A stretch of 64,000 nucleotides of DNA from assembly GCA_030041545.1 (NCBI GenBank), contig JASHNQ010000059.1:16222-80221 (forward strand), read 5' to 3'. Below, piece after piece: positions 32,464 through 52,508 of this stretch. A program made the position numbers and the translations under genes. Source of the DNA: a candidate division FCPU426 bacterium (GTDB lineage: Bacteria > Oederibacteriota > Muellerivitia > Muellerivitales > Muellerivitaceae). The first letter of the stretch is position 1. Each line of letters starts with the position of its first letter. Below the pieces are notes generated by a model. It made no database searches and had not been told where the DNA came from. It saw only the letters and a list, made by a program, of their open reading frames with translations.

Positions 32464-32546
32464 AGTTTTGAGTTGATGAGAATTTTCATCCGTGAAACGG
32501 ATGAAAATTTCCCAAACTCATAACTCAGCACTCTGAACTCAAAACT
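32464..32546. repeat. intergenic hairpin repeat element (family copy 1)
   Basis: AGTTTTGAGTT...central perfect palindrome AATTTTCATCCG-TGAAA-CGGATGAAAATT...ATAACTCAGCACTCTGAACTCAAAACT. Shares the ATAACTCA/CTGAACTCAAAACT core with copies 2 and 3. Confidence 0.5.
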
Positions 32547-32550
32547 GACG

Positions 32551-33540
32551 TCAAAAGGCCCTGTATTCCAACAAACAGCCGTTTTGGAACATCGATTTCA
32601 GGGTGGAAAAAGGCGTCATATTCTTCAGGAATTCCTCGACGGGAGAGGGCCGGTCCAAACGCACCGTCGGTTCCCCCTTGATTCCGGCCAAGTCGGCGGT
32701 CAATTGCACGGCGTCCTCATAGTCCCCCAGTTGGTCCACCAAGCCCAATTCATAGGCCTTTTGACCGGTTAAAACCCGACCATCCGCGTAGGGCAAAAGG
32801 TAGCTGCGTATCTCCAAATCCGTGACGGCCGAAGCCTTCTTGCCCAGGGTTTTGGAAAGTTTCTGCTGGAGCACCTTACGGCGGCCGTCAATCACGGCAT
32901 TCAAGAACTGGTTGAAAACCTCATTAATGGTGCCCTGGATATAGGCCTTTTCCTGGGGGGTCATGGGCCGGCTGATGGAACCGGTGTCCTTGAATTTGCC
33001 GCTTTTAACCACCTGATAATCCACTCCTATCTTCTTAAGGAGGCCGGCGGCTTCGGGAAGCTCGAAAATGACCCCGATGGAACCCGTCAAGGTGCCCGGG
33101 TTGGCCACGATTTTGTTGCAGGCGGAGGCGATGTAATAAGCGCCCGAGGCAGCCAGGCTGCCCATGCTGGCCACCACGATCTTCTTGTCTTCCCGGGCTT
33201 TCAAAATTTCAGAATAAACCTCCTGGGAAGGGGCCACCACCCCGCCCGGACTGTCGATGCGCAACAGCAGGGCCTTTTTGGACCCGGTACGGAACCGCTT
33301 GATGAGCCGCACCAAGTCGTCGCTTTCGTAGATCGGGCCTTGGATTTCCACCAGGCTGATCTCGTTGCCGTCGGAAATCAGGGATGTGGCGCCCGTGCCG
33401 GTCAAGGCGTGCTGGACCGCGAAAACCACCACGACCAGGCTCAAGAAAAGCAGGCCCACGAGGATGACCATGGCCCAAAGAAGGGCATGGTTTCGGGACG
33501 TGGCCGGTGAGGGGGTTGGGGATACGGTAGAAGTCGCCAT
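32551..33540 (-). CDS. sppA: signal peptide peptidase SppA (S49, 36K type)
   Basis: S49 motifs SPGGVVAPSQEVY and GSLAASGAYYIASAC (Ser nucleophile). Internal Met 33540 chosen as start. Confidence 0.8.
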   Translation of the reverse strand: MATSTVSPTPSPATSRNHALLWAMVILVGLLFLSLVVVVFAVQHALTGTGATSLISDGNEISLVEIQGPIYESDDLVRLIKRFRTGSKKALLLRIDSPGGVVAPSQEVYSEILKAREDKKIVVASMGSLAASGAYYIASACNKIVANPGTLTGSIGVIFELPEAAGLLKKIGVDYQVVKSGKFKDTGSISRPMTPQEKAYIQGTINEVFNQFLNAVIDGRRKVLQQKLSKTLGKKASAVTDLEIRSYLLPYADGRVLTGQKAYELGLVDQLGDYEDAVQLTADLAGIKGEPTVRLDRPSPVEEFLKNMTPFSTLKSMFQNGCLLEYRAF

Positions 33541-33644
33541 AAGGAGGCTATGGTAACAGACCCCTAAAACCGATGCAACACGCCAATCGGGATGATAGAG
33601 GCTCATCGCAGCTTTGAGTCGCCGCGCCGCTTGCCCCTGGGGCG

Positions 33645-35030
33645 CTACGGCCCACTGCGCATTAAAACCATCTTCCTTAAGAATCGGCCATCCTTGGACA
33701 AAACGGCGGAATAAAGTCCAGGCGGCGCTTCCAGGCCCAGGCCTTCCAGCCCATCCCATGAAGCCCAGGCTTCCTTTTCCGTCGTGATTTTTTTATCGAA
33801 AACCGTTTGTATCAACTGGCCGTGGTTGTCCCAAATGCAGAGTTGGTACTCCCCTACCCCGTCCCGGAAGCCCATATAAATGTTGATGGGAAAAACACTG
33901 AAGACCAACGTTGAGGGAGCCCCCGCGGAAATGGGAATATTTTGGGCTGGAGAAGGACCGCCCACCGACAGGAAACTTCCACCGGTCGGTGTCAAAGAGG
34001 GCAAGGGTAGGGTGGGAAAGGCCGTGGGAATGGGCTTGCCCTTCCCCACCGGGGTTTGGCCGGAAAGCGCCGGCAAGGCCGCTTCCGTGCAGGGGCATCC
34101 ACCCTCCCCCAGCCATTGGGCCACGGCGGGGAAAAAGGCCCGGGTCACCTCCTTGGCCTCCCGCACGTGCTGGGCCAGGGAGGCGGTGGAGCGGATGTTT
34201 CCGGGCGCCCAGGCCGAATCGTCCCAAATGGGGGGGGGGTTCTCCGCCCCGCCGTACATCCCCGGCTGCCAAAGGGTCCACATGGTGGCATCCCAAACCA
34301 TGAAAAACCTGCCTCGGCCGCACAAACCGCTCGTCACGGCCCCGCCCAATTGGTTGCCCGACCAGCCGGAAACCATGGACCGGTCCGCTTGGTCGCTGAC
34401 CCAATCCTCCGATGTGTCCACGAAGTTGGTTCCTGTTAAATAGTCCAGCGGGATTCCTCCCACCATATTTCCATAAAATCGGCGGGGGCCCAGGCCGTTC
34501 CGGACCTTGTAAAAACCCTCGCCGGTGGTGCTGCTGTTGCCCCGGGGCGATGGCGGACAGGGATCATATCCCGGCTTGACCGCGTGGATTTCTTGGAGGA
34601 AGGCATAGACCCCCTCATCCCGGTCCGCGTAGGGGAAATATTCCGCGGCCAGGAAAAGTTTGCCGCAATGGTTGAGGAAGGAAACGGCCTTGGACCGCCA
34701 GCGGCCGTCGAAGTAATCCGCGGCCTGGGGCTGGCCGCTGCCGCACTCCCTGGAATCCCGGTCCACGAACCGCATATCCCATACCTGGTCGTAGGGGGCG
34801 CCCCAATCGTCGCTGCGCGGGTCGCGGTTCTTCCCGTCCACGTCCACGGTGGTCACGCGGTGGCCGGCGTTCTGGAGGATGGTCACGCATTCCAAAAGCG
34901 CGCCATTGGTGCCGTCGCCGCTATTGTAGTAAAAAAGGATGTTGTAGGCATGGGCCGTTAAAGGCCGGATAAAAAGGGATGAGGTCAAAAAGGTAAAAAG
35001 GAAAAAAAGGAATCGTGGCGGGAATTTCAT
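33645..35030 (-). CDS. secreted protein with a C-terminal FlgD-Ig/T9SS-like sorting domain
   Basis: Signal peptide MKFPPRFLFFLFTFLTSSLF. C-terminal block PINIYMGFRDGVGEYQLCIWDNHGQLIQTV...GLYSAVLSKDGRFLRKMVLMR. Confidence 0.5.
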   Translation of the reverse strand: MKFPPRFLFFLFTFLTSSLFIRPLTAHAYNILFYYNSGDGTNGALLECVTILQNAGHRVTTVDVDGKNRDPRSDDWGAPYDQVWDMRFVDRDSRECGSGQPQAADYFDGRWRSKAVSFLNHCGKLFLAAEYFPYADRDEGVYAFLQEIHAVKPGYDPCPPSPRGNSSTTGEGFYKVRNGLGPRRFYGNMVGGIPLDYLTGTNFVDTSEDWVSDQADRSMVSGWSGNQLGGAVTSGLCGRGRFFMVWDATMWTLWQPGMYGGAENPPPIWDDSAWAPGNIRSTASLAQHVREAKEVTRAFFPAVAQWLGEGGCPCTEAALPALSGQTPVGKGKPIPTAFPTLPLPSLTPTGGSFLSVGGPSPAQNIPISAGAPSTLVFSVFPINIYMGFRDGVGEYQLCIWDNHGQLIQTVFDKKITTEKEAWASWDGLEGLGLEAPPGLYSAVLSKDGRFLRKMVLMRSGP

Positions 35031-35109
35031 GACCAAGTCCACAGTTGTCCATTTGCAGTTGAGGGGCGTTTTTGGCTGCCGACTGTGGACTGTTAGCTGG
35101 CGACTGCCT

Positions 35110-35991
35110 TTAGTGGTAGTAATCGCCCTTGTCCACGAATTGGGATTTGGAGGCATCCCACTGGTAAACCGTGGTCATGCGCCGGAAGGGCCCGGCGAAG
35201 TCGTTGTCCGTCAGCTGGTAGCGTTCCTGGGCCTGCGTCTTCAAATCCGGCGGGTAAAGGACGTCGGTGGTGTTGATGATCTCCAGGGTGCCGTCGTGGT
35301 TCAGGTCCCGGTAAAGGGTGTAGCCCTCCAGCCACACGTTCAGCTCGAGTTCTTCCTTCACGTATTTTTGCACGTCCACCAGTTCGGGACGGTTGTAAAG
35401 CTCGTCCGGAACGCCCTGGAGGGCGTCGGTGACCAGCCGGTAAAAGGTCCTATCACAGCGGCTTCCCCCGCCGTAAGTGCCCACCTCGAAGAAAACGGGC
35501 ATTTCCTTGCCCAGGCTGACCAGGCGGGCGCAGCCGGGGTAACCTTGCCCGTGGAAGAGGTGCCGCCATTCCAGCCCGATTTTGATGTAGATCTCCGAGC
35601 TGCAGTGCCGGATGTCCCATTCGTCGGCGTAATCGGCCGTCAGGAAGGATTGTCCTTCGGCCTTGGAGTACCCCAGGAAGACCAGGGGAACCTCCGCTCC
35701 GTTGGCAGTGAGGGCCGTCAAGGGAATGCCGAACCTTGGGGCCAGCCCCGGGAGCAGCCGCCGCATGGCCACCAGGCGCCGGTGCCGCGAGGCGATGAAG
35801 TACACGTGAGGCTTGACCCGGATACCCCGGATGGCGCTTTGGAGGGATGGGTCCAGTTTGGCGTTGTGCCGGTCCACCCAAACCTGCGACATTTCCAAAC
35901 GGTCCATGGTCTCGTTTTCCGAAATCGCCCGCAAACCTCCGGGGAAAAACGCGCAGGCCAAGAGGATCGATAGGATGAGGGTTCTTTTCAT
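35110..35991 (-). CDS. hypothetical secreted protein
   Basis: Signal peptide MKRTLILSILLACAFFPGGLRA. No motif. Confidence 0.45.
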   Translation of the reverse strand: MKRTLILSILLACAFFPGGLRAISENETMDRLEMSQVWVDRHNAKLDPSLQSAIRGIRVKPHVYFIASRHRRLVAMRRLLPGLAPRFGIPLTALTANGAEVPLVFLGYSKAEGQSFLTADYADEWDIRHCSSEIYIKIGLEWRHLFHGQGYPGCARLVSLGKEMPVFFEVGTYGGGSRCDRTFYRLVTDALQGVPDELYNRPELVDVQKYVKEELELNVWLEGYTLYRDLNHDGTLEIINTTDVLYPPDLKTQAQERYQLTDNDFAGPFRRMTTVYQWDASKSQFVDKGDYYH

Positions 35992-35999
35992 GGACTCCT

Positions 36000-36217
36000 C
36001 CCAAAATTGTTTGAGGGACAATTATAAATGTAAAATGAACAAATAACGAAAAATAGTGAAATGGTTTTTGATGATTTTTCAGTACTGAAAATCTACAAAA
36101 ATGCCAATAAAGAGAATGTCCCTTTTTCAAAAGAACTTCCGGACGTCGTCTTAAACAATGTTACAATATGACTGTACTTATTAATAACTACATACAATTT
36201 ATAACATAGGCAAAGAC
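36000..36217 (+). promoter_or_regulatory. AT-rich leader/promoter region upstream of abiEi (left edge of the island)
   Basis: Sharp GC drop relative to both flanks. Direct TACAAT-containing repeats GTTACAATATGA and ATACAATTTATAA upstream of ATG 36218. Confidence 0.35.
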
Positions 36218-36820
36218 ATGAAAACAGCACCTAAAATCTCTATCCCCAAAACCCTTTTCCAAAAGGGCGTCCTGCGTCCCCGCGACATCCTCCAACAAGG
36301 GATCAGCCGGATGCGCCTGAAAAGGCTGGTGGACCAAGGCGTCCTAGTGCGTGAGGCGCGGGGGGTATACCGCGTTCCCGGCCATGAACCTTCCGAAAAG
36401 GAAAGCCTCGTCCAGGCCTGCGAAAGAGTGCCGGGCGGCATTCTTTGCCTGCTGACGGCGCTCCAATTCCATGGCATGACAACCCAATTCCCCCATGAAA
36501 TCTGGATGGCGATTGACGTGTGGGCCCGCAAGCCCCATGCGGAACATCTTCCCATCCGTTTTGTCCGTGCTTCCGGCAAATCCCTCGCTTCCGAGGTGGA
36601 GGAACACACCGTCCAAGGCGGGCGCATCCGGGTTTATAGCGCGGCGAAAACAGTTGCCGATTGCTTCAAGTACCGGAACAAGATCGGCCTGGACGTGGCG
36701 CTGGAAGCCCTGAAAGCCTTCCAAACCGGCCACAAAGGAAAGATGGATGATCTTTGGAGGAGCGCCCGCGTTTGCCGCGTGTCAAATATCATCCGGCCTT
36801 ATTTGGAGGCCCTGGCTTGA
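36218..36820 (+). CDS. abiEi: AbiEi family antitoxin (type IV TA / abortive infection)
   Basis: N-terminal wHTH region (GISRMRLKRLVDQGVLVREARGVYRV) and C-terminal conserved domain typical of AbiEi_4. Confidence 0.8.
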   Translation: MKTAPKISIPKTLFQKGVLRPRDILQQGISRMRLKRLVDQGVLVREARGVYRVPGHEPSEKESLVQACERVPGGILCLLTALQFHGMTTQFPHEIWMAIDVWARKPHAEHLPIRFVRASGKSLASEVEEHTVQGGRIRVYSAAKTVADCFKYRNKIGLDVALEALKAFQTGHKGKMDDLWRSARVCRVSNIIRPYLEALA

Positions 36821-37685
36821 AGAAAAAAAAAAGATCAAAAACCTCCCAGCTTCTGTGCGTCAGCGGCTCTATAACATCTCCAAAACTCGCAAGGAGGAAT
36901 TCGAATATGTCCTCACACGGTACGCCCTGGAAAGGTTCCTTTACCGCCTGGGCCGGTCAGTCCACCAAAAGAGGTTCGTTTTGAAAGGGGCCATGCTTTT
37001 CCAAGCCTGGTCACCCGAGATCCACCGTATGACCAGGGATTTGGACCTCCTGGATTCCAACAACCATGAAGCCCAAAAGGTCGTCCATGCTATCCGGGAA
37101 GTGTTGAATTCAAAAGTCCCAGATGACGGATTGGTTTTCAACGGTAAGTCGATTAAGTGGGGAGCCATCCGGCAGGGGCAAGCCTATCATGGGGTCCGCC
37201 TTCACTTTAAGGCCAAATTGACCCCGGCGGTCATCCCCCTCCAAGTAGATGTGGGTTTCGGCGACGCGATTGTGCCAAAGCCCAAGCGCATCCGTTACCC
37301 GACCCTTTTGGGTTTCCCATCCCCACATGTCCTGGCTTATGCCAAAGAAACCGTGGTCGCGGAAAAGCTCCATGCCATCGTGCTACTGGGCATGACGAAC
37401 AGCCGCTTGAAGGATTACTTCGACCTGTCGGTGCTCCTGAAAGGCGAAACCCTCGACGCCGACATGCTGGCCCAAGCGATTAAGGCAACGTTCAAGCGCC
37501 GCAGCATGCCCGTTCCCGCCGAACTGCCGATCGGTCTCACGGACGAATTCTCGCACGATCCATCGCAACAGGCGCTATGGCGTGCGTTCGTCAAGAGGAA
37601 CGGACTCGACCTCGAACCTTTGGCCGCCGTCGTGGAGCGACTGCGGACGGCCTTGGGACCGGCATTGAGCCGGGCCGGTCTATGA
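36747..37685 (+). CDS. abiEii: nucleotidyltransferase AbiEii/AbiGii toxin family protein
   Basis: NLPASVRQRLYN...YALERFLYRL N-terminal signature. DLD(L)LD NTase-like motif. First ATG overlaps abiEi by 74 nt; the true start may be a non-ATG codon nearer 36820. Confidence 0.8.
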   Translation: MIFGGAPAFAACQISSGLIWRPWLEEKKKIKNLPASVRQRLYNISKTRKEEFEYVLTRYALERFLYRLGRSVHQKRFVLKGAMLFQAWSPEIHRMTRDLDLLDSNNHEAQKVVHAIREVLNSKVPDDGLVFNGKSIKWGAIRQGQAYHGVRLHFKAKLTPAVIPLQVDVGFGDAIVPKPKRIRYPTLLGFPSPHVLAYAKETVVAEKLHAIVLLGMTNSRLKDYFDLSVLLKGETLDADMLAQAIKATFKRRSMPVPAELPIGLTDEFSHDPSQQALWRAFVKRNGLDLEPLAAVVERLRTALGPALSRAGL

Positions 37686-40600
37686 CAACCGCTTCTTTCG
37701 TATCCATTGACCTGGAAGTCGGCCGCGACAGCGGACGCATCCACCAGTTGGCTGGGGTACATAGCAATGGCATCGCCTCCCTTGCCTTTCCGCCCGGTAC
37801 GCTGTCTGATGCGCTTGATGCCTTGGATCGCCTCGCCGACGGCGCTACATTTGTTATCGGGCACAACCTGATCGCCTTCGACTTGCCGCAGTTGCGCGCG
37901 GCCCAGCCCAATCTGCGGCTACTGGATAAACCCGCGGTTGATACGCTACGCCTCAATCCCCTAGCCTTCCCGCGAAACCCCTACCACCACCTCGTCAAGC
38001 ACTACCAGGACGGCGCCTTGCTCGGCAACCGCCGCAATAATCCATTTTTGGACGCTGAACTCGCCTTGCAAGTCTTTGCCGACCAACACGCCAGCCTGAA
38101 AGCGATGCAGCACACCATGCCCGACTTGTTGCTCGCGTGGCATTGGCTGACAGCCCAGAATGACGGTGTTGGCGGATTTGATCGCTTCTTTACCGAAGTT
38201 CGCGGCACCGGCAAGCCGGATGCGGCACAGGTTGGGGCTGCATTTAGCCGTTTGCTGGACAACACGGCCTGCACACGAGCCAGTGCAAAAATCATCTCCG
38301 AAGCGGCGCAATCCCCCTGGTCTTTGGCCTATGCACTCGCCTGGATATCCGTGGCGGGGGGTAATTCGGTGGTGTCGCCGTGGGTGCGTCACCAGTTCCC
38401 TGAAACTGGACGGTTGATCCGGGCCCTGCGCGACACGCCCTGCGCCGATCCGGCCTGCGCCTGGTGCCGACGCGAACACGACTCTCTGGCCCAGTTGAAG
38501 CAGTGGTACGGCAAGGATTACGACTTTCGCTCCGAGCCGGTGGATAAGTCCAGCGGCCTGCCCTTGCAGCGGGTGATCGTCGAAGCGGCAATTCGCGGCG
38601 AGCACGCGTTAGGCATTTTGCCCACCGGCACCGGTAAGTCGCTGTGTTACCAGGTGCCCGCCCTGTCGCGTTTCGTGCGCACCGGAGCGTTGTCCATCGT
38701 CATCTCGCCATTGGTGGCGCTGATGGAAGACCAAGTAATGGGACTCCGCGAGCGCGGCATCGAAGGCTGCGCGGCGATCAACGGCCTGTTGTCCATGCCC
38801 GAGCGCGCGGACGTGCTGGACCGGGCACGCCTGGGTGATGTCGGCATCCTCCTCATCGCGCCGGAGCAGTTGCGCAACAAGAGCGTGCGAAAAGTTCTGG
38901 CACAGCGCGAGATCGGCGCTTGGATTTTCGACGAGGCCCACTGCCTGTCTAAGTGGGGACAGGATTTTCGCCCCGATTACCGTTATGTCGCCCGCTTCAT
39001 TCGTGAAAGCGCCGAGGCCAGTCCAAGCGGCGAACTGCCGCTGATCCAATGCCTGACCGCCACTGCCAAGCCCGAGGTCGTGGCCGACATCGTGGGCCAC
39101 TTCCGCGAAAGACTTGGTGTGGAGCTGCGCGTGTTCGACGGCGGATCGAAGCGTGACAACCTCGAATTCGATGTGATCGAAACCACCCCCGGCCAAAAAT
39201 TCGACCAAGTCGCCCACCTGATCGAGCGCGACTTGCCCGCCGGAATGTTCGGCGGGGCCATCGTTTACTGCGCCACGCGCAACCGGACGGAAGACCTGGC
39301 CGGTTTTCTGTGCGAAAAAGGGATGGCTGCCGCCCCTTACCACGCGAAATTGAAACCGGAAACCAAGAAGGAGACGCAGAAAGCATTCATTATGGGTACG
39401 CTACGCGTCATCGCGGCGACCAATGCTTTCGGCATGGGGATCGACAAGCCCGACGTGCGTCTTGTCGTCCATGCCGACATTCCCGGCTCGCTGGAAAATT
39501 ATTTGCAGGAGGCAGGCCGCGCCGGGCGTGACCGCGCACAGGCGCGCTGCGTGCTGCTCTACGCCCCCGATGACGTAGAGCGCCAGCACGGCATGTCGGC
39601 GGCCTCTCGCCTGTCGCGGCGCGACATCCAGAGCGTACTGCGCGCCTTGCGCCAGTTGCAGCGCAAGAAGGAACGCGATCAGGCGCTGGTCGCCACTGCC
39701 GGTGAAATCCTGAACGAGAATGAAGAAGGCGAGTTCAAACGCGACGGTGCCACCGACGACACCCGCGTGCGCACAGCCGTCGCGTGGCTGGAGGAAGCCG
39801 GATTGTTGCGCCGCGAGGAAAACACGGTTCAAATCTTCCCTTCGTCGCTCCGTGTCAAAAACCTGGCCGACGCTGAGCGCAAGCTGGCGGGCGTCGATGC
39901 CATATACCGCCAGAAATGCCTGGACCTGGTCCAAATCCTGTTGGCCGCCCCAGCGAATGAAGGACTGTCCACCGACGAACTAATGGCAGCCACCGGCCTT
40001 CATGCCGATGCCCTGCGCGAAACCCTGTTCCTTTTCGACCGCCTGGACATTGCCGGCAACGACACGGCGATGACCGCCTACGTCCACGTCGCGGTCGAAA
40101 ATTCGTCGAAGAAACGTTTTGACGAAGCCTGCGCGTTGGAGCAGGCCGTGATCGCCGCCCTACGGGAAGAAGCACCCGACCTCGGGGCGGGCGACGCCTC
40201 GCCGTTGCACCTGCGCCTGCTGGCCCAGCGGCTGAAAGACCAGGGCTTTCCTGCGCTGCCCCAACGGCTGCGCCAGGTCATCGCTGGGCTGGCGGGTGAC
40301 GGTCGCGACGGCGAGGATGGCAAGGGAAGCCTTACCTTGAAGCGCGGTGCCGATCCCGAGACGATTCATGTCACGCTCAACCGTCCATGGAACACTCTGG
40401 AAAAGATTGCCGAGCGTCGCCGCAGCGCCGCCCGAAGGCTGCTGGAGCATTGGCTGTCCGCCCTGCCGCAAGGTGCACGCGGCGTCGATCAACTGGCGGA
40501 AACCACGCTCGGCAAACTAACCGCCAGCGTCGCGGGCGATGCCATCCTCTCCGCCGAAACCCCGGACATACGCAAGCTAGTCGATCGGGCTCTGCTATGG

Positions 40601-42778
40601 CTGCACGAGCAGGAAGTGCTACGCCTGAACAAGGGGCTGGCCATCTTTCGCGCCGCAATGACTTTACATCTGGAACCCAACTGGAAGTTGCAATTTGAAA
40701 AAAACAACTACCAGCCACTGGCCATGCACTACGACGAACTGACCCGGCAAATCCACATCATGGCGGAATACGCCGAGCTTGGCGTCAAGAAAATGGCCGA
40801 TGCTCTGCGCCTGGCGGTGGACTATTTCCGCCTGTCACGCGAGGAGTTTTGTCGGCGATGGCTGCCGGGCCGCGAAGACGAACTAACCCGCCAGACCACG
40901 CCCCAGTCCTGGGACACCATCGTCGAAACCCTGTCCCGACCTCACCAACGCAGGATCGTCGCCGATGACCGGGAGGACACCAACGTGCTGGTGCTTGCCG
41001 GACCCGGCTCGGGCAAGACCCGCGTGCTCGTCCACCGCATCGCCTACCTAGTGCGTATACGCCGCGAAAACCCCCGGGCCATTCTGGCCCTGGCCTACAA
41101 CCGCCATGCGGCGCTGGAGATCCGCAAGCGATTGATAGAACTCATCGGCGGCGACGCACGCGGCGTCACTGTGCACACCTGCCACGGACTGGCCATGCGC
41201 CTGATGGGTGCGAGCTTTGCAAATCGCAGAGGCGAGGATGCCGACTTCGACGCCGTTCTGAAGGAGGCAACAGCCCTGCTCGAAGGCCACGGCTTGCCGC
41301 CGGAAGATGCCGACGTTCAGCGCGACCGCCTGCTGGCGGGTTTTCGCTGGATATTGGTGGACGAGTACCAGGATATCGACCCCGGCCAGTACGCGCTGAT
41401 CTCGGCGCTGGCTGGGCGCAAGCGCAACGACGAGGATGGACGCCTCAACCTGTTCGCGGTGGGCGATGACGATCAGAACATCTACGCTTTTGCGGGTGCC
41501 TCGGTAGAGTTCATCCGCCGCTTTACCGAGGACTACAAGGCCAAAACGGAACTCCTGGTCGAAAACTACCGCAGCACACGCCACATCATCGACGCCGCCA
41601 ACCGCGTGATAATCCGTGCTGCGTCGCGGATGAAGACTGAAGCGATCCGAGTAAACACCGCCCGCGCCCAATGCGCGCCTGGCGGCGATTGGCAACGGAT
41701 CGACCCTGTGGTACAGGGCCGCGTACAGATACTCCCCACTGGCAACAGCGCGCAACAGCAGGCACTGGCCATCTACACCGAACTGCGGCGCATGATGGCG
41801 CTTGGCCTCGATCCAGCCAAAACGGCGGTCATCGCCCGCCAGTGGAAATTCCTCGATCCCCTGCGCGCGGCGCTGGAAGCCGCCGATATCCCCGTCGCTA
41901 TGGCCGATGAAGAGGCGCCACTCCTGTGGCGTTTACGCGAAACGCAGGCGCTGCTGGCTTTTCTCGATGAACGGCAAACAGCTTCCGGCTCCCGGTTGCT
42001 CAAAGCGGATGACCTTCAATCCTGGCTGGCAACGCAGGACAGCACGGGCTGGTGGCCCATGCTCAGCGAAGCCATAGCCGCCTTTGCCGAGGACACCCAG
42101 GGTGCGGAAGTATTGCTTGCCTCCTTCCGCGACTGGTTGGCCGAATGGGGCCGCGCTAGCCGCCGCCTGCAAACCGGCATCCTGCTTCTGACCGCGCACC
42201 GCGCTAAAGGGCTGGAGTTCGACCATGTGTTCATTCTTGACGGCGAATGGCAGGCCGGCAAGAACGAGGATCAGGATGGGGCGCGACGCCTCTATTACGT
42301 CGCCATGACCCGCGCCCGCGCCACCCTGGCGCTGGCGCGCATGAATACGGGGAATGCCATGCTCGATGGCCTGGCTGATCATCCTGCCCTGTTGCGCCGT
42401 CCTCTAACGCAATGGTTGCCACCCCCCGGACCAATGGAACGCTATTATCGGATGCCCGGACTGGAAGAGATCAACCTCGGTTTCGCGGGTCGGCAGGACG
42501 TAGGCCACCGGGTGCACCGCGCCATCGCCAGCCTACGCATTGGTGATGCGCTGCGCTACGTCGGGGACGAACTGGGTCATCGGCTCGAAAACACGTCCGG
42601 CGTGACCGTCGGGCGCTTGTCGAAAAATTTCGAACCGCCGCCCGGATTGCGTTGCCAAGCGGCTCGGGTGCGCGCCATTCTGGTCTGGCGCAAATCTGAC
42701 AGCGCGCCGGAATATCAGGCCCAATGCCGCAGTGAAACTTGGGAAGTCGTTCTGCCGGAACTGGTTTTCGCACCTTGA
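37682..42778 (+). CDS. fusion protein: DnaQ-like 3'-5' exonuclease + RecQ-family helicase + UvrD/PcrA-family helicase (WRN-like with extra SF1 helicase)
   Basis: ATG overlaps the abiEii stop (ATGA at 37682-37685). Exo motifs FVSIDLEV and GHNLIAFDLPQL. RecQ motifs ILPTGTGKSLCYQVPAL, DEAHCLSKWGQDFRPDY, LTATA, HADIPGSLENYLQEAGRAGRD. UvrD motifs LAGPGSGKTRVLVHRIAYLV, ILVDEYQDIDP, VGDDDQNIYAFAG, ENYRST, LLTAHRAKGLEFDHVFI, YYVAMTRAR. Confidence 0.85.
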   Translation: MTTASFVSIDLEVGRDSGRIHQLAGVHSNGIASLAFPPGTLSDALDALDRLADGATFVIGHNLIAFDLPQLRAAQPNLRLLDKPAVDTLRLNPLAFPRNPYHHLVKHYQDGALLGNRRNNPFLDAELALQVFADQHASLKAMQHTMPDLLLAWHWLTAQNDGVGGFDRFFTEVRGTGKPDAAQVGAAFSRLLDNTACTRASAKIISEAAQSPWSLAYALAWISVAGGNSVVSPWVRHQFPETGRLIRALRDTPCADPACAWCRREHDSLAQLKQWYGKDYDFRSEPVDKSSGLPLQRVIVEAAIRGEHALGILPTGTGKSLCYQVPALSRFVRTGALSIVISPLVALMEDQVMGLRERGIEGCAAINGLLSMPERADVLDRARLGDVGILLIAPEQLRNKSVRKVLAQREIGAWIFDEAHCLSKWGQDFRPDYRYVARFIRESAEASPSGELPLIQCLTATAKPEVVADIVGHFRERLGVELRVFDGGSKRDNLEFDVIETTPGQKFDQVAHLIERDLPAGMFGGAIVYCATRNRTEDLAGFLCEKGMAAAPYHAKLKPETKKETQKAFIMGTLRVIAATNAFGMGIDKPDVRLVVHADIPGSLENYLQEAGRAGRDRAQARCVLLYAPDDVERQHGMSAASRLSRRDIQSVLRALRQLQRKKERDQALVATAGEILNENEEGEFKRDGATDDTRVRTAVAWLEEAGLLRREENTVQIFPSSLRVKNLADAERKLAGVDAIYRQKCLDLVQILLAAPANEGLSTDELMAATGLHADALRETLFLFDRLDIAGNDTAMTAYVHVAVENSSKKRFDEACALEQAVIAALREEAPDLGAGDASPLHLRLLAQRLKDQGFPALPQRLRQVIAGLAGDGRDGEDGKGSLTLKRGADPETIHVTLNRPWNTLEKIAERRRSAARRLLEHWLSALPQGARGVDQLAETTLGKLTASVAGDAILSAETPDIRKLVDRALLWLHEQEVLRLNKGLAIFRAAMTLHLEPNWKLQFEKNNYQPLAMHYDELTRQIHIMAEYAELGVKKMADALRLAVDYFRLSREEFCRRWLPGREDELTRQTTPQSWDTIVETLSRPHQRRIVADDREDTNVLVLAGPGSGKTRVLVHRIAYLVRIRRENPRAILALAYNRHAALEIRKRLIELIGGDARGVTVHTCHGLAMRLMGASFANRRGEDADFDAVLKEATALLEGHGLPPEDADVQRDRLLAGFRWILVDEYQDIDPGQYALISALAGRKRNDEDGRLNLFAVGDDDQNIYAFAGASVEFIRRFTEDYKAKTELLVENYRSTRHIIDAANRVIIRAASRMKTEAIRVNTARAQCAPGGDWQRIDPVVQGRVQILPTGNSAQQQALAIYTELRRMMALGLDPAKTAVIARQWKFLDPLRAALEAADIPVAMADEEAPLLWRLRETQALLAFLDERQTASGSRLLKADDLQSWLATQDSTGWWPMLSEAIAAFAEDTQGAEVLLASFRDWLAEWGRASRRLQTGILLLTAHRAKGLEFDHVFILDGEWQAGKNEDQDGARRLYYVAMTRARATLALARMNTGNAMLDGLADHPALLRRPLTQWLPPPGPMERYYRMPGLEEINLGFAGRQDVGHRVHRAIASLRIGDALRYVGDELGHRLENTSGVTVGRLSKNFEPPPGLRCQAARVRAILVWRKSDSAPEYQAQCRSETWEVVLPELVFAP

Positions 42779-43732: not shown

Positions 43733-44004
43733 ATCGGCATCCTGCGCTGAGACATACATTTTTAAGCTTATAGACGGTCGTGTCAAGTTCGGCCGCGATC
43801 CATGGAGTCCACGACCAGCTATCGAACCTAAAAAAACGCAATTTCAGGGCCTTTGTATCATTAAACTTCCATCGCTTTCGCTTACGCCTTTTCCGGCTGG
43901 AACCAGCTGAGTACACAAAGTAAGTCGAAAATGTCTTGAAAAAGAATTCGGTTTACTTCGTGGTCTTCGTGTACTTCGTGGTGAGAGAGGTTTTGAAACA
44001 GGTT

Positions 44005-44460: not shown

Positions 44461-44559
44461 CCGCCAGGCTGTCGGCGGATGCCCTCCGAAGCCTTGGCGA
44501 AGGAGGGCAAAAAGGCCCCACAGGCTATGCCCGTGGGGCTCCATTGAAAATTCAGGTTG

Positions 44560-45504
44560 TCAGCTTTCTCCGGCTGCCATTATTTTATCGATTTCATCCA
44601 CAGCCTTCCCCATGTTTTCGTAATCATCCAGGTTGATCCACCGAACTTTATGCTGGTGCTTGAACCATGTCCACTGGCGCTTGGCGTATTGGCGCGTGCG
44701 GCGGAACATCCTTTCCAAGGCCTCCCCTTCCCGCAGTTCCCCCTTTTGGAAGGCCAGGGCTTCGGCGTAGCCGATGGCGCCCCAAATCGGATGGTCCGGG
44801 GCCAGGCCCCTGCCGGAAAGCCTTTGGGCTTCCTCCAAAAGGCCGTTTTTCCACATGGATTCCACCCGGGCCCTCAACATCAAGTCCAGGCGGTCCCGGG
44901 AGCGCTCTAAACCCAAAAATAAAACCACTGGATCGCCCAAGGGCCGGTAACCCGCGTCCTCCGACCCCTTTTCGTAGGTCTTTTCCAAGGCCCGACAGAG
45001 CCGCTGGAGATCGTTGGAATGGAGCCTTCGGGCGGCCGCGGGATCCCTTTCCTCCAACCAGGCATGGGCCTTTTCATTTCCCAATTTCAGGACCTTCGCT
45101 AAAACCCAGGCCCGGACTTCCGGCAGGGGAGCCTTGCCTTGCGGGGGGCCTTCCACGAGGGCGCGCAGGTAAAAGCCCGATCCTCCCACGAGGATGAAGC
45201 GTTTCCCATGGTTTTGTCCTTCCTGGAGGACGCGGCTGGCCTCCCGTGCGAACTCCACGGCGTTCCAAGCTTTGCGGGGATCCCGCGTGCCCACCAGATG
45301 GTGCGGAATTTCCTTTTGCCATTCTTTTGGAGGCTGCGCCGTACCCACCTCCAAACCCCGGTAGACCTGGAAAGCATCCGCCGAAAGGATTTCGGCCTTC
45401 CATCTTTTGGCCAGGAGGAACGCCGCTTCCGATTTACCGACGCCGGTGGGCCCCACCAGGATGGGTAGTTTTAAGTTTTGAGTTCCGGGTTTTGAGTTTT
45501 TCAA
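44560..45504 (-). CDS. miaA: tRNA dimethylallyltransferase
   Basis: P-loop GPTGVGKS, typical MiaA length, position downstream of mutL. The first 13 codons overlap a repeat element, so the start is uncertain. Confidence 0.85.
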   Translation of the reverse strand: MKNSKPGTQNLKLPILVGPTGVGKSEAAFLLAKRWKAEILSADAFQVYRGLEVGTAQPPKEWQKEIPHHLVGTRDPRKAWNAVEFAREASRVLQEGQNHGKRFILVGGSGFYLRALVEGPPQGKAPLPEVRAWVLAKVLKLGNEKAHAWLEERDPAAARRLHSNDLQRLCRALEKTYEKGSEDAGYRPLGDPVVLFLGLERSRDRLDLMLRARVESMWKNGLLEEAQRLSGRGLAPDHPIWGAIGYAEALAFQKGELREGEALERMFRRTRQYAKRQWTWFKHQHKVRWINLDDYENMGKAVDEIDKIMAAGES

Positions 45505-45595
45505 GATGTATTCTAGGCCGGCAAAAATCCCTGGTTTTGAACCTTTGGTTCAAAACATACAATAACTCAAAACCCTGAACTCAAAACTTAAAACT
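45467..45595. repeat. intergenic inverted-repeat (MITE/REP-like) element (family copy 2) between mutL and miaA
   Basis: Terminal inverted repeats AGTTTTAAGTTTTGAGTTCCGGGTTTTGAGTT / AACTCAAAACCCTGAACTCAAAACTTAAAACT. Internal palindrome GGTTTTGAACC-TTT-GGTTCAAAAC. Confidence 0.5.
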
Positions 45596-45602
45596 GCCGT
45601 TC

Positions 45603-47438: not shown

Positions 47439-47503
47439 AATGAGTGGTTATCGAAGATTCGGAAGGAAGTGTCAACAGGGAAAAGAAACTACCGTTGTCT
47501 GGC

Positions 47504-48586: not shown

Positions 48587-49746
48587 TTGAATCCCACGTT
48601 CGTTCCGAAAGTGAACCGCTGGTAGGTGATGGTTTGGTTGTTGACCCCGGCGTTGACATTAGCGATGTAATGGTAAAGCCCGGCCAGGTTCCAGAAGGTT
48701 GAAGAAGAGAGTTGGAAGGTGATGCTTTGTTCGGCCCCCAAAAGGTTTCCCCCTCCCTCGTAATATTCCGTGCTGGACTGGGGATACCCGTTGGGCTGGA
48801 TCCAGTCCCAAACCAACCCGCTTTCCAGCACCACGCCCGGGCCCGCGGAATAGCCGAAGATGGGATGGATTTCCAGCTTGTCCCCAAAATAAGGCCCTGG
48901 GTCCGCGGCGAGGGAATAGGGGGCCGTTGTCTGGGCCGTGTTGCCGGTCCCGTAAAAGCTGTAGGAGGCGTTGATTACCAGCTTGTCCTTCCCCATTTGG
49001 CTGATCCATTGGGTGGTGAGAATATTGCTGGCATCCTCGGTAAAATCCTCCGACGCGGTGGAATAGGTCGACTCAAAGGGGAAAGTGCGCACGTAGCGGA
49101 AGGCCCAAATATCGGCGGCCGACATGCGCAGCCCTAGGGTGGCTAGGGCCACTGCGTTGTCGCCCGGGCTGAAGGTGCCTTGTGCGGAAAGGGTCGTGTC
49201 GTAGGTGGCCGTGGACATGAACCCACCGCCCAGGCCATACTCGACGCCGGGACTTGAAACCGAAAGGGTGTAAAAAACGTCGCCACCCCAGCCCGCGCCA
49301 TGGTAGTAGCTCGGCTCAAAGATAAAGGGGATGGCCCCGACCAGCTCCGCGATTTCCCACCGGTTGTCGCCCGTGGGGATGTTCAGGATGCCGGAAAAGG
49401 TGGACCGCACGGAGTTGCCCATGTCCAGCCCCCAGTTGACGCCCAGGCTGGTGTCGGAAAACTCGCTGGAACTATAGCTGGAGCCCGCGATGCCAAAGCT
49501 GGGGTCCGCGTCCTGCACATAGTCCCCCGCCACGAAGGCCGTGTTCAGGGAAAGGGAAAGGTCTGGCGAGGAGAAATAATAGGACAGGGGGACCCGGTTC
49601 TCGGTCCCGTTGTAAAGCGAGTTGCTATTCCAAAAATCGAAGACATAGCCCGCCTGCAGCTCCTCTTGGTCGGCCCGCGACGGTCCCCCGGCTAAAAACA
49701 GGCCCAAGGCCAGGACCGCCGTGATACCGCATTGTCTCAGGTTCAT
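48580..49746 (-). CDS. putative outer-membrane beta-barrel protein
   Basis: Signal peptide. Alternating hydrophobic beta-strand pattern. C-terminal ...NVGFKW aromatic end. Confidence 0.5.
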   Translation of the reverse strand: MNLRQCGITAVLALGLFLAGGPSRADQEELQAGYVFDFWNSNSLYNGTENRVPLSYYFSSPDLSLSLNTAFVAGDYVQDADPSFGIAGSSYSSSEFSDTSLGVNWGLDMGNSVRSTFSGILNIPTGDNRWEIAELVGAIPFIFEPSYYHGAGWGGDVFYTLSVSSPGVEYGLGGGFMSTATYDTTLSAQGTFSPGDNAVALATLGLRMSAADIWAFRYVRTFPFESTYSTASEDFTEDASNILTTQWISQMGKDKLVINASYSFYGTGNTAQTTAPYSLAADPGPYFGDKLEIHPIFGYSAGPGVVLESGLVWDWIQPNGYPQSSTEYYEGGGNLLGAEQSITFQLSSSTFWNLAGLYHYIANVNAGVNNQTITYQRFTFGTNVGFKW

Positions 49747-49761
49747 AAAGTCGGTCTTTCG

Positions 49762-50550
49762 TTATTTCGTTAAAGGAAGGTATTGGGGGAATCCCAGTTG
49801 TAAATTCAGCAAGTTGTGGGCGCCCAGCGCCGCGATTCCCGTGTTGTGAACCTGGCCGGTGATCCCAGGCAACCCACTGGGCAGATCGGTCAGAGGAGTG
49901 TTGAACTCGTCCAAACCTGTGCCATTGAAACCGTAAAAAGGGTTGGAGGCAATGAAGCCCGGGTGAGGCAGATTGGTTCCCGTGGAAGGCGGCGTATGCG
50001 GCGTCCAGGTTCCGTTCAGGTAGGTGCCTCCCTGGCCCGCGTGGAATTCCTGGGTCTGGCCGTTGGCCGTGGACCAAACCGTGCCGTCGAGCACCAAGAC
50101 GTCCACCTTGCCCGTGGAGGGGTCGTAAAACATCGAGTATTCCGTGCCTCGCACGCCGCACACCACGCCCCCGGCCTCGATCTCGAAGGAGGATTTGGAC
50201 GTCAGCAACTTGCTCACGCTCGCCAAAAGCTTGCCCAGTTCCAGTTTGAATTGGATGACCTTGTCCTTGGGTCCGGGTTGCTGGAGCTTTTCCACCGTGA
50301 ACCCGGTATTGGGGCTGATTTGAAGTTGGGACCCGTCGAAGAGCTTCAGGGTGGCCTGGCCGTCGGCCCCGGCCTCGATACGGTCCCCTTCCGAAACCTG
50401 TCCATTGACCTTGGCTGGATGGGCCTTGTGGCTTTTGGCGGTCGTGAACGTGACCGTGCCCGTGACGGAAGTGAAAACGGCCCCGGTATCGGCCAGGGCC
50501 AATCCCGGAAGGATCAGTAGGAACGTTATAAGTGTGAGCAAGCGTTTCAT
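49762..50550 (-). CDS. periplasmic FecR-domain protein
   Basis: Signal peptide. FecR-like segment ATLKLFDGSQLQISPNTGFTV...FEIEAGGVVCGVRGTEY. No cytoplasmic anti-sigma N-domain. Confidence 0.55.
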   Translation of the reverse strand: MKRLLTLITFLLILPGLALADTGAVFTSVTGTVTFTTAKSHKAHPAKVNGQVSEGDRIEAGADGQATLKLFDGSQLQISPNTGFTVEKLQQPGPKDKVIQFKLELGKLLASVSKLLTSKSSFEIEAGGVVCGVRGTEYSMFYDPSTGKVDVLVLDGTVWSTANGQTQEFHAGQGGTYLNGTWTPHTPPSTGTNLPHPGFIASNPFYGFNGTGLDEFNTPLTDLPSGLPGITGQVHNTGIAALGAHNLLNLQLGFPQYLPLTK

Positions 50551-50823
50551 ACGAACCCCTTGGGCCCACGGGCCCTTTCTTGTTTACAATTTAAGCATAT
50601 CAAAAACAAGCCAAATCTTAGGTGAAACTCCGATTAAATTTTCCAAAAACAGGGATTTTTACGAAAATTAACCTTGCATTGATCACGCCTCTGGAAGGGA
50701 AAACGCTTCCTAGGGTCGGCGGCAAAAGAAGGCTCCCACCGAACTCCCCATAACCAAACGGATTTTTCGCCGTATGCCGATCCCACGAACTTGAAATGTA
50801 TTGAAGGAGCAAGAGCTAAGGGG

Positions 50824-52392
50824 TCAGGAGGGACCGGTAAGGCCCATGACTTCGTAGATTTGTACCTTCGCGGACTTACCCTTGAGGGAGACGGATTTCA
50901 ACTTGTTGACCTTGACGGCGTTTCCCAGTTCCTGGAAGGTCTCCTCCGTGATGAAGATCTGCCCGCCCTCGGTCTCCCCTTCCACGCGGGAGGCGGTGTT
51001 CACCATGTCGCCGATGGCCGTGTACTCCATCCGTCGCTCGCTGCCGATGTTGCCCACGATGGCCTCGCCGGTGTTGAGGCCGTAGCCCACCTGGATCTGG
51101 GGTTTCTTCTCGGCCTTCCACTTCTCGTTCAACTTGGCCAGCTTGTCACGCATCTCAATGGCCGTCTTGACGGCCTTATAGGCCCCGTCCTTCAGCTCCA
51201 GGGGCGCCCCGTAGATGGCCATGACGGCGTCGCCGATGAACTTGTCCAATGTGCCGTTGTTGGCGAAGATGACCTCGGACATGGCGCTGAAATACTCGTT
51301 GAGGAGGCCCACGATGGTTTCCACGGGCTCCTTCTCGGTGAGGGTGGTGAAACCGCGGATGTCGCAGAACAGGACCGAAATTTTCCTTTTCTCGCCGCCC
51401 AAGGAAAGCGCGCCCGTCTTCTCCACCATCTCGTCCACGAGGTTGGGGGAAAGGTAGCGCTGCAGCGAGGTGCGCAGGCGCTCCTCCCGCCTCACGTCGT
51501 CGAAGAGCTTGGCGTTGGCGATGGCCACCGCGGCCTGGTTGGCGAAGGCCGAGAGGAAGTACATGTCCTCCTCGTTGAAGGTGGTGGTGCCTTCCGCCTT
51601 GTCCACGTAAATGACGCCCACGATGTTTTCCCGCTCCCAGATGGGCACGCAGATGACCGAGGAGAGGGGCAGGGCCTTGAGGCTTTCACGGCCGGAGAAA
51701 CGCACGTCGTGGATGGCGTCCAGGACCAGCACGGGCACCCGCTCCCGCAGGACCGTGTCCACGATGGTCTGGCTGTAGGGGGCCTGGGCCTCGGCGGGGG
51801 TCAAGGCATGGGTGGCCGCGGGCTTAAGGTCGCCCGCCTTGTCCCGCAAGAGCAGGAAGCCCCGGTTGGCCTGCATGACCTTGATGGCCATGGCCATGAT
51901 GATGGAAAGCAGGGTCTTGAGTTCCAGCACCGAGTTGACGATGTTCCCCACCTCGTAAAGGGTGAGGAGCTTCTTGTGGGCCAGCTCGTCGATCTTAGGG
52001 GTCCGCGAGTCCTCCGAGTCCTTGGAGACCTCCAGGGCGAACCGCAGGCGGGTGCCGCCGATGGAAATCACGTCCTGGCTGCGCAAGGGGTTCTCGGTGA
52101 CGCGGGCGCCGTTCAGGAAGGTGCCGTTGGTGCTGCCCAGGTCCTTGAGGGAGATGCCGCCCATCCCCAGCATGATCTGGCAATGCTGCCGGGAGACCAG
52201 GGGATCGGTGACGACGATCTCGCAGGTGGTGGAGCGGCCCAGGATGGTGGTGGGCCGGGAGACCTTGAACACCTGCCCCTGCTCCGGCCCGGCCATGACG
52301 GTCAGGGTGATTTGCGGCTTGCCCGTGGACTTGGGGGGGGTGAGGATGATGCGGCCCGGAGTGGACGGTTCGGCGGATTGGGGAGAAGGCAT
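50824..52392 (-). CDS. FHA-GAF-adenylate/guanylate cyclase (class III) signalling protein
   Basis: FHA (TILGRSTTCEIVV...VSRQHCQI...GSTNGTFLNG), GAF, and cyclase motifs ISVLFCDIRGFT and FIGDAVMAIYGAP. Confidence 0.8.
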   Translation of the reverse strand: MPSPQSAEPSTPGRIILTPPKSTGKPQITLTVMAGPEQGQVFKVSRPTTILGRSTTCEIVVTDPLVSRQHCQIMLGMGGISLKDLGSTNGTFLNGARVTENPLRSQDVISIGGTRLRFALEVSKDSEDSRTPKIDELAHKKLLTLYEVGNIVNSVLELKTLLSIIMAMAIKVMQANRGFLLLRDKAGDLKPAATHALTPAEAQAPYSQTIVDTVLRERVPVLVLDAIHDVRFSGRESLKALPLSSVICVPIWERENIVGVIYVDKAEGTTTFNEEDMYFLSAFANQAAVAIANAKLFDDVRREERLRTSLQRYLSPNLVDEMVEKTGALSLGGEKRKISVLFCDIRGFTTLTEKEPVETIVGLLNEYFSAMSEVIFANNGTLDKFIGDAVMAIYGAPLELKDGAYKAVKTAIEMRDKLAKLNEKWKAEKKPQIQVGYGLNTGEAIVGNIGSERRMEYTAIGDMVNTASRVEGETEGGQIFITEETFQELGNAVKVNKLKSVSLKGKSAKVQIYEVMGLTGPS

Positions 52393-52442
52393 TTCATGAC
52401 CTTTCGAGGCGAATTATGAATTTTTAATTTTAAATTGTTGAA

Positions 52443-52500
52443 AGTTTTGATCCAAAGGTTCAACACTTTCCATAACTCGGAACTCACAACTCAAAACTTA
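52443..52500. repeat. intergenic repeat element (family copy 3) between the cyclase gene start and the kinase gene end
   Basis: AGTTTTGATCCAAAGGTTCAACAC...ATAACTCGGAACTCACAACTCAAAACTT. Same core as copies 1 and 2. Confidence 0.45.
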
Positions 52501-52508
52501 GAATTTGT

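Follow-up and report, generated by a model that had tools for sequence, protein, structure and literature searches.

We show that three intergenic spacers in a 64-kb stretch of DNA from a candidate division FCPU426 bacterium (contig JASHNQ010000059.1; hereafter the window) carry related palindromic elements, at 32464-32546, 45464-45598 and 52411-52499, in which tandem 7-nt units (heptads) flank a central hairpin. These elements are probably copies of a dispersed palindromic repeat, about 102 nt long, that is lineage-specific, non-coding and non-autonomous, a selfish repeat resembling repetitive extragenic palindromes (REP), enterobacterial repetitive intergenic consensus (ERIC) sequences and MITEs (miniature inverted-repeat transposable elements). 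An original prediction, made from the sequence alone, had proposed three related intergenic elements at these junctions, and all three are present where it placed them. Inverted pairs of heptamer arrays are already known in Xanthomonas and Nostoc, and the family in the window is a further example rather than a new system; the literature that we searched yielded no description of AAAACTC arrays or of this family.

Three heptad-armed hairpins in intergenic spacers

The prediction also held that the three sites share a core and align better than chance, and counts in the window bear this out. The 11-mer AACTCAAAACT occurs 12 times with at most one mismatch, against 0.73 expected, and 11 of the 12 occurrences fall within the three sites; the phased 25-nt pattern WAACTCNNNACNCNNAACTCAAAAC occurs four times exactly and seven times with at most three mismatches, against 0.01 expected at that tolerance. 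The shared core is an array of 7-nt period, (NNAACTC)n on the + strand, which the prediction had left unremarked. It reads CAAACTC ATAACTC AGCACTC TGAACTC AAAACTG at site 1, ATAACTC AAAACCC TGAACTC AAAACTT AAAACTG at site 2 and ATAACTC GGAACTC ACAACTC AAAACTT at site 3. Tandem Repeats Finder (TRF) reports period 7 at 32515-32546, 45467-45500 and 45550-45595 (sites 1 and 2), and a lag of 7 is the sole short period enriched in the window: intergenic DNA is just 16% of the sequence but is reached by five of the six strict lag-7 segments, and lags of 5, 6 and 8-11 give none there. Because the arms are heptanucleotide tandem arrays, the elements are tied to the known literature on heptamer repeats.

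Placement at gene junctions was predicted correctly for tandem genes, since each of the three sites has minus-strand genes on both sides, running in the same direction; none lies between convergent genes, which had also been suggested. In gene sense each site has the same order, namely a stop codon, 4-9 nt, G/T-rich heptads of the AGTTTTG type, a hairpin, A/C-rich or A-rich heptads and the next gene. The three junctions are now 90-116 nt long.

Copy 1 (32464-32546, minus in gene sense) lies between the stop codon of an S49 peptidase (TGA, 32553-32551) and a gene of 644 aa. Its G/T-rich 5' arm (32512-32546; AGTTTTG AGTTCAG AGTGCTG AGTTATG AGTTTGG; TRF period 7, 4.6 copies) begins 4 nt past that stop codon and, read on the + strand, is the ATAACTCA...CTGAACTCAAAACT core named in the prediction; its third unit type, AGTGNTG, is also found in other copies of the family. 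An inverted-repeat search recovered the separate perfect palindrome that had been noted in this copy, a private centre of 13 bp (32481-32493 / 32497-32509) within 32481-32509, AATTTTCATCCGT-GAA-ACGGATGAAAATT. The outer inverted arms are 11 nt long, and the short A/C-rich 3' arm (32464-32474), which is AACTCAAAACT in gene sense, lies upstream of a Shine-Dalgarno (SD) sequence, GGAGGG. A family profile built without site 1 still matches this site at E = 1.2e-8 (nhmmer).

Copy 2 (45464-45598, minus in gene sense) lies between the mutL stop codon (TGA, 45605-45603) and miaA, and its sequence is also present in the NCBI metagenome-assembled genome (MAG) GCA_030051685.1. The terminal inverted repeats and inner perfect palindrome ascribed to this copy are both there: the arms (45464-45501 and 45561-45598) are 38 nt long and 92% complementary, and the central family hairpin (45534-45556, GTTTTGAACC-TTT-GGTTCAAAAC) is a perfect 10-bp palindrome (45534-45543 / 45547-45556). 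The G/T-rich 5' arm (45561-45598; ATAACTC AAAACCC TGAACTC AAAACTT AAAACT on the + strand) begins 4 nt past the mutL stop codon, and the A/C-rich arm (45467-45504) holds the putative miaA TTG start (45504-45502) and codons 2-13 (KNSKPGTQNLKL).

Copy 3 (52411-52499, minus in gene sense) lies between the stop codon of an NHL Ser/Thr kinase gene (TAA, 52511-52509) and the start of an FHA-GAF-adenylate cyclase gene (ATG, 52392). It is matched by nhmmer at 52406-52510 (E = 2e-18) and reaches further left than first drawn, to about 52411, through a degenerate AATTNNN arm. The G/T-rich 5' arm (52471-52499; CATAACTC GGAACTC ACAACTC AAAACTT on the + strand) begins 9 nt past the kinase stop codon, the central hairpin (52440-52470, GAAAGTTTTGATCC-AAA-GGTTCAACACTTTC) is a diverged form of the family hairpin, and the degenerate A-rich 3' arm (52411-52439; AAAATTN heptads with G:C to A:T decay, lag-7 segment 52409-52439) ends just upstream of an SD-like GAAAGG. 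Across the hairpin and core, copies 3 and 2 are identical at 46 of 63 positions in an ungapped alignment.

The expected hairpins hold up when each copy is folded as gene-sense RNA (z = -4.4 at site 1, -8.1 at site 2 and -2.5 at site 3). Copy 1 reaches -35.2 kcal/mol in gene sense, and copy 2 reaches -59.8 kcal/mol in sense and -66.8 in antisense (z = -8 to -10).

A dispersed family within a shallow clade

Relatives were picked by a MutL search, which returned MAGs labelled 'bacterium' at 87-52% identity, next matches near 42% and Poribacteria-labelled sequences at 39-40%, and seven syntenic loci were compared. L-numbers denote loci of relatives or of metagenome or viral contigs, and element counts are drawn from the window, the relatives' contigs and metagenome contigs. 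L122 is a relative with 87% MutL identity; L124 and L125 encode the same MutL protein, come from different samples and are identical at the compared junctions; the three farthest relatives have 71-57% MutL identity.

The alignment of the family (A1, 18 copies) gives the consensus AGTTTTG AGTTTTG AGTnTTG AGTTnTG AGTTTTG GAAGT for the 5' half, the hairpin TTTTGAACC nnA GGTTCAAAA for the centre and ACATnCA TTAACTC AAAACTn AnAACTC AnAACTC AAAACTT for the 3' half. The element of about 102 nt is composed of five heptads, a linker (GGAAGT), the hairpin, a second linker (ACATTCA) and five more heptads, and its ends are AGTTTTGAG, with AGTTTT...AAAACT outermost. With five units per arm, the unit logo reads A.96, G.79, T.99, T.81, followed by variable positions. 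A candidate rule by which stops interrupt every frame of the G/T arm and leave every frame of the A/C arm open was dropped, because 3' arms also contain TAA or TAG.

Variants of the hairpin, TTTTGAACC-NNN-GGTTCAAAA, are common to sites 2 and 3, L122 and two L124 sites. Two L124 copies and about 14 from metagenomes have the same hairpin as copy 2, and L122 has a form of it whose loop is 2 nt long and whose stem contains one mismatch. A metagenome scan with the hairpin returned 120 loci, most of them unrelated palindromes, and the full element is present in about 14 of the 120 (GC 0.49-0.60). These copies are 80-87% identical over 95-113 nt on contigs that, two syntenic contig pairs excepted, share nothing else. 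Profile searches found additional copies on the same contigs, with three in L173 and two in L190, and the density amounts to three copies in 64 kb in the window, two in 22 kb in L124 and three in 10 kb in L173. Variants of single units recur at fixed positions, such as AGTGTTG as the third 5' unit and ATTAACT as the first 3' unit (each in 5 of 14 copies), an argument that the copies descend from one master.

Where genes could be called on either side, copies stand mostly between co-directional ones (about 14 of 17, with 2 convergent and 1 divergent; genes around metagenome copies were called with a codon-usage model trained on the relatives' called genes). They stand 0-10 nt from the upstream stop codon, which in L155 and L198 falls inside the first heptad, and the slightly asymmetric centre is found in both orientations.

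Orthologous junctions are filled in some relatives and empty in others. At site 1, L122 shares its arms with the window, the odd third unit AGTGTTG among them, and differs in its centre, TTTTTGAACCAAGGTTCGAAAA, which is the family hairpin and occupies the place of the private palindrome of copy 1; the 3' arm has five units in L122 versus two in the window, and L123 and L124 retain element remnants only. At site 3, the hairpin and AACTC heptads of L124 and L125 face the other way with respect to the genes; the spacer of L123 is unrelated, and that of L126 is just 7 nt long. At site 2, the 5' arm and hairpin are found in none of the relatives compared. The mutL|miaA junction holds several quite different spacers among these relatives, and in L122 (2297-2335) three tandem 8-nt units, CACAGAGA CACAGAGG CACAGAG, take the place of the heptad element.

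In the three farthest relatives, the junction spacers are at most 43 nt long and hold no heptad arrays and no family copies, and in one of them the mutL and miaA genes have a 4-nt overlap. Since distant relatives have tight spacers free of copies, the ancestral state would be a tight operon and the elements derived. The family offers a datable example of small palindromic repeats entering tight operons, in which spacers of at most 43 nt and one overlap have become junctions of 90-116 nt.

Comparison with relatives also bears on gene starts. The true start of the 644-aa gene behind copy 1 is likely GTG 32445 with the SD sequence GGAGGG; its orthologues start GTG GCC GAA, preceded by GGAGG in L123 and L124, and the position of the ATG is AGG in L122. 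The longest-ORF (open reading frame) start of this gene, TTG 32460, falls inside copy 1. Starts beside such repeats are easily misplaced, which is a warning for annotation.

An element arm at the start of miaA

One copy had been predicted to supply the first 13 codons of miaA, and orthologous N-termini agree with this. MiaA of the window reads KNSKPGTQNLKL-PILVGPTG after the TTG start, and its counterparts read MSDNSKLKPQNLKLPILVGPTG in L126 and MPENSQLKIHNLKLPILVGPTG in L125; the L126 DNA at the miaA start is a 5-unit heptad array that ends at the same codon. As the orthologous N-termini match, the A/C-rich arm of copy 2 appears to be translated as miaA codons 2-13, and the comparison supports the TTG start. 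The public MAG gene call of miaA (GTG 45456, inside the P-loop strand) is probably 16 codons too short. MiaA of distant relatives has short N-termini unrelated to that of the window.

In this genome alone, the arm codons of miaA are paired at 35 of 38 positions with the upstream inverted copy, and the TTG stands at the inner end of the stem. With the start and early codons in or beside such a stem, miaA translation should be lowered, and the stem should hinder initiation or invite cleavage by a double-strand RNase. The family illustrates the decay of such repeats, and the miaA N-terminus the recruitment of one into coding sequence.

Heptamer arrays in other taxa and related repeats

Xanthomonas (GGGAATC; (GGGANTN)n) and Nostoc (GGGGAYT) carry heterogeneous heptamer arrays of about four units with about five conserved positions (Rehm et al. 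2015, PMC4692102). The Xanthomonas arrays are about 90% intergenic and in most cases have co-oriented ORFs on either side, at a mean distance of 28 nt to the upstream one; about 75% of them form inverted pairs, always in one relative order, and the length and sequence of such arrays differ widely among close species (PMC4692102). The window family is like them in its heterogeneous units, inverted pairs, fixed order, co-oriented ORFs, stop-proximal position and wide variation among close relatives. It differs from them (PMC4692102) in that its unit is A/C-rich (AAAACTC), with no G-tracts and no G-quadruplex potential, between its arms lie fixed linkers and a conserved 21-nt hairpin, which makes it a discrete element of about 102 nt, its host belongs to a different lineage, and one arm in the window appears to be translated.

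Marine Beggiatoaceae, some Cyanobacteria and Bacteroidetes have TAACTGA arrays of 2-6 units (MacGregor 2015, PMC4679880). Of these sets 169 are direct and one is indirect, they overlap the ribosome-binding position, and related heptamers are rare in that genome (PMC4679880). The window family shares with them an intergenic location, sense orientation just upstream of starts and a patchy distribution across phyla, and TAACTGA is one base off TAACTCA, the first unit of the family. Unlike the TAACTGA repeats (PMC4679880), the window arrays are inverted around a hairpin, their units are TAACTCA and AAAACTC, an SD-like sequence separates arm and start at site 1 (GGAGGG) and site 3 (GAAAGG), and the miaA arm is putatively coding. 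Likeness to the cyanobacterial short tandemly repeated repetitive (STRR) sequences (Mazel 1990, as cited in PMC4692102 and PMC4679880) extends to tandem 7-nt units and intergenic enrichment; STRR arrays can be long and homogeneous, whereas those of the window have about five heterogeneous units and sit within a composite palindromic element. Period 7 is the dominant class of long simple sequence repeats in bacteria (Mrazek 2007, as cited in PMC4679880), and heptamer arrays of any sequence are common (PMC4692102; Mrazek 2007, as cited in PMC4679880).

Our scan of a genome collection with the heptad core returned at least 120 loci in many phyla, among them Cyanobacteria, Bacteroidota, Acidobacteriota, Chloroflexota, Ignavibacteria, delta-proteobacteria and Verrucomicrobiota, and many of the loci are inverted pairs. 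We considered AAAACTC as a conserved motif across phyla and rejected it: (AAAACTC)3 occurs at 44 viral-contig loci versus 32, 22 and 45 for three controls of the same composition, and since these controls are about equally common, AAAACTC itself is not special. The inverted pairs follow a polarity, with the G/T-rich array 5' of the A/C-rich one in 32 of 32 cases in genomes and at ratios of 17:0, 2:0 and 6:2 in viral contigs, for a total of 57 of 59 pairs; every family copy has the same order. Loci from many phyla and from phage contigs that illustrate it include L004, L019, L053, L077 and L109, as well as L249-L269. Several contigs of IMG/VR sample 3300045988 are packed with inverted heptamer arrays.

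A plausible cause of this polarity is that the reverse order, an A-rich arm followed by a hairpin and a U-rich arm, would make a bidirectional terminator. A fourth heptad site in the window (site 4, described below), where a hairpin is followed by T-rich heptads, scores as terminator-like and the three family copies do not, which is consistent with this idea. If the polarity rule is general, it gives an experimental handle on long-unexplained heptanucleotide repeats of bacteria. A broader proposal, which we judge distinctly unlikely, is that heptad-armed hairpins make up a widespread intergenic class across phyla and phages under a near-absolute polarity rule that implies a shared constraint or machinery. 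Were it true, the constraint could be that hairpins must let transcription pass both ways, or that a conserved protein binds single strands in 7-nt steps; the window family would be a mobile form, in one lineage, of a general device, and the role of STRR-type heptamer repeats, a question 35 years old, would become testable.

Small palindromic repeats offer a second set of parallels. ERIC and the Neisseria Correia elements (NEMIS) are small non-coding imperfect palindromes, of about 100-150 nt, that lie in mostly co-transcribed spacers in either orientation, and Correia elements make a TA duplication. The likeness of the window family to them, by description, lies in an imperfect palindrome of about 102 nt found in both orientations in operon-internal spacers whose transcription we infer; unlike Correia elements, the family copies have no TA duplication. 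Terminal inverted repeats and orthologous sites both filled and empty recall MITEs, from which the family differs in having no target-site duplication. Rickettsia palindromic elements insert in frame inside genes; in the window, a palindromic repeat likewise seems to form part of coding sequence, at the N-termini of MiaA and of a 237-aa protein, but only one arm is used, as the first 12 codons or so. REP sequences, present at more than 100 copies per genome, carry a GTAG-like head beside the palindrome, unlike the window family, which has no GTAG-type head and whose conserved flanks are GGAAGT and ACATTCA. The family is like REP and bacterial interspersed mosaic elements with their REP-associated tyrosine transposase, RAYT (Nunvar et al. 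2010, PMC2817692), in being a small non-coding extragenic imperfect palindrome that occurs in both orientations and has no target-site duplication; it is unlike them (PMC2817692) in that its arms are heptad arrays and the window has no RAYT gene.

Origin and possible functions of the elements

The comparisons indicate that the repeat has been copied into many unrelated intergenic spacers within a shallow clade of an uncultured bacterium. The spacers in which it landed had been very short operon spacers, and an element therefore abuts the stop codon on its upstream side and the ribosome-binding site on its downstream side. Copies then decay in place, as arms erode from G:C to A:T, the centre is deleted or exchanged for another palindrome and the orientation flips in some cases. 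The element would be co-transcribed with its neighbours, and its transcript would fold into a long imperfect hairpin of -30 to -60 kcal/mol; because the stem is followed by an A/C-rich arm and no U-tract, transcription should not terminate there. Effects on expression would be incidental; the hairpin could block 3' exonucleases, serve double-strand RNases as a target or occlude the downstream initiation region. At miaA, the A/C-rich arm would have been recruited as codons 2-13.

The suggestion that the elements could be mobile miniature elements stands as far as they are small intergenic hairpin repeats of the REP/MITE kind and dispersed, but neither a target-site duplication nor, within the window, a transposase accompanies them. 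The search for target-site duplications came out negative, as 13 copies have no common flanking di- to octanucleotide, and Pfam detected no transposase domain among about 53 window genes. Our best guess at the mobiliser, and a tentative one, is a single-strand, hairpin-recognising route like that of REP/RAYT or IS200, which is favoured by the lack of target-site duplication together with the conserved hairpin.

Several points weigh against a selfish dispersed repeat. We infer mobility with no target-site duplication, no parent element and no strain polymorphism within a species, and the copy number is extrapolated from 64 kb and relatives. The arm at site 2 is ancestral coding sequence in relatives, and copy 2 may therefore have grown in place rather than been inserted whole. 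The central palindrome was swapped for another palindrome and not simply lost, and the excess of folding on the sense strand is a weak hint of either RNA-level constraint or a C-to-T bias on the coding strand.

Some of these points would suit a selected intercistronic RNA element that protects against 3' exonucleases, serves as a processing site for double-strand RNases or tunes translation, an explanation that we find unlikely. Such roles are reported for E. coli REP, for ERIC and for the Neisseria Correia elements, and tuning could follow from a stem that starts 4-9 nt past a stop codon and ends at the initiation region of the next gene. In most copies the stem does begin no further than 10 nt from the stop codon, but such closeness follows trivially from insertion into very short spacers. 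The hairpins are stable on the sense strand, and pairing in the central stem reaches 98%, three compensatory pairs included; the centres of the syntenic L240 and L190b differ by two compensatory pairs (TTTTGAACC/GGTTCAAAA versus TTTTCAATC/GATTGAAAA). RNAalifold supports the central stem only. Pairing of the arms reaches 71% of cells in register versus 50% when slid by one column, with modest covariation (8 of 500 shuffles reach it), and counting against a selected RNA, the complementarity between the two arms of one copy is no higher than that between arms taken from different copies (p = 0.43 and 0.24). In 10 of 15 copies the sense RNA gives a better fold than the antisense (Wilcoxon p = 0.035, sign test p = 0.30), and the sense strand has about twice the G-U pairs (41 versus 22), a weak bias that C-to-T changes on the coding strand could produce. 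At two orthologous sites the centre was exchanged for another palindrome and not lost, as a selected hairpin might require; however, the element is absent from the same junctions in close relatives, the ancestral spacer is at most 43 nt and element-free, and both orientations are found.

We consider it improbable that the heptad arrays are phased sites for a single-strand-binding protein, with a cold-shock domain, S1 or otherwise, that would control a post-transcriptional regulon as proposed for TAACTGA in Beggiatoaceae. Five of seven unit positions are conserved and two vary freely, arrays have 4-5 units as in Xanthomonas (PMC4692102), TAACTGA is a single base away from the TAACTCA first unit (PMC4679880), and the polarity rule (32:0 and 25:2) might reflect such binding. 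In other phyla, A/C-rich arrays often lie just upstream of starts (26 of 131, by crude ORF calls), but in the window SD-like sequences separate arm and start at sites 1 and 3. Moreover, control heptamers are about equally common in viral contigs, leaving no privileged sequence, orthologous genes of relatives manage without arrays, and quite different units (CAGTNCG, CTAACTG) accompany the same central hairpin.

An origin in place without mobility, in which slippage builds heptamer arrays and template switching makes palindromes independently at each site, appears quite improbable. It would fit the ubiquity of heptamer arrays of many sequences (our scans; Mrazek 2007, as cited in PMC4679880), central palindromes that change in place and the lack of target-site duplication. 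It would also fit site 2, where the A/C-rich arm is ancestral miaA coding sequence and its near-perfect inverted copy is found in this genome only. Independent events cannot, however, yield 80-87% identity over about 100 nt in unrelated flanks, shared down to GGAAGT, ACATTCA, the 21-nt hairpin and the unit variants, and the units within an arm are heterogeneous, unlike the products of recent slippage.

Hairpins at gene junctions, and the terminator-like score of site 4, would also invite a reading of the sites as terminators or attenuators, small-RNA genes or phase-variable switches made of simple sequence repeats. Heptamer repeats do control hmw expression in Haemophilus. Phase variation by simple sequence repeats in that genus is the subject of a report (PMC12721329). 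These readings are very improbable, since a terminator scan gave no hit at the three copies, where no U-tract follows the stem, a promoter scan of them gave one weak sigma-70-like match (site 3) and nothing else, Rfam returned only tRNAs at gathering thresholds, L124 and L125 are identical at the junctions despite their different samples, and unit numbers stable at about five together with imperfect units should make slippage rare. Permissive Rfam searches added only sub-threshold matches to plant miRNA precursors, as any long hairpin gives. The proposal of attenuators or small-RNA genes in the original prediction is likewise not supported, the sites lying in operons that are tight in relatives.

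Other heptad arrays and neighbouring features

Site 4 (58950-59056) follows the stop codon of lptE, named from Pfam, and falls outside the family by nhmmer. In gene sense the stop codon is followed by a GC-containing hairpin (59056-59034), heptads of the (AATTTTG) type (59035-59001) and A-rich heptads that encode MVKFKFKI, the predicted N-terminus of the next gene (a 237-aa protein, 58268-58981). The site is conserved in L124 at 1787-1844, within the stretch 1787-1945. The array-encoded N-terminus is MVKFKFKISARVLAVL in the window and MFQFKIQNLKLKISALAVVFF in L124; here an array would provide a signal or anchor peptide with its charged beginning.

The spacer between the divergent murJ and rpsT genes holds an inverted heptad pair with units CAGTCNA / TNGACTG (56809-56903; TRF period 7, 4.4 copies), in which CAGTCCA and CAGTCGA units occur and contain GTCGAC. 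In the metagenome copy L221, arms of this murJ/rpsT type are joined to the family hairpin, and this mixture suggests that arms and centre act as separate modules. Directly after rpsT stands a perfect direct repeat, GAAGTAGTTC twice at 57175-57194, and more CAGTT-type heptad-like units follow in the convergent rpsT|holA spacer.

A block at 36218-42778 is not present in any syntenic relative and looks like an inserted defence island. It comprises an AbiEi antitoxin gene (36218-36820), an AbiEii nucleotidyltransferase toxin gene (36747-37685) and a gene for a 1733-aa fusion of DEAD/Helicase_C and UvrD-type helicases (37577-42778). A tyrosine recombinase gene (Phage_integrase and SAM-like N-terminal domain, 23175-24323) lies beside genes for an alpha/beta hydrolase and a 2-hydroxyacid dehydrogenase; since this neighbourhood is also found in the distant L391 and L392, the recombinase gene probably belongs to the resident chromosome as an Xer-like gene rather than to a mobile element. 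A gap of 57 nt separates two tRNA-Pro genes (CGG and GGG) in 18329-18537, and a tRNA-Arg gene (CCT, 20617-20693) follows 2 kb on.

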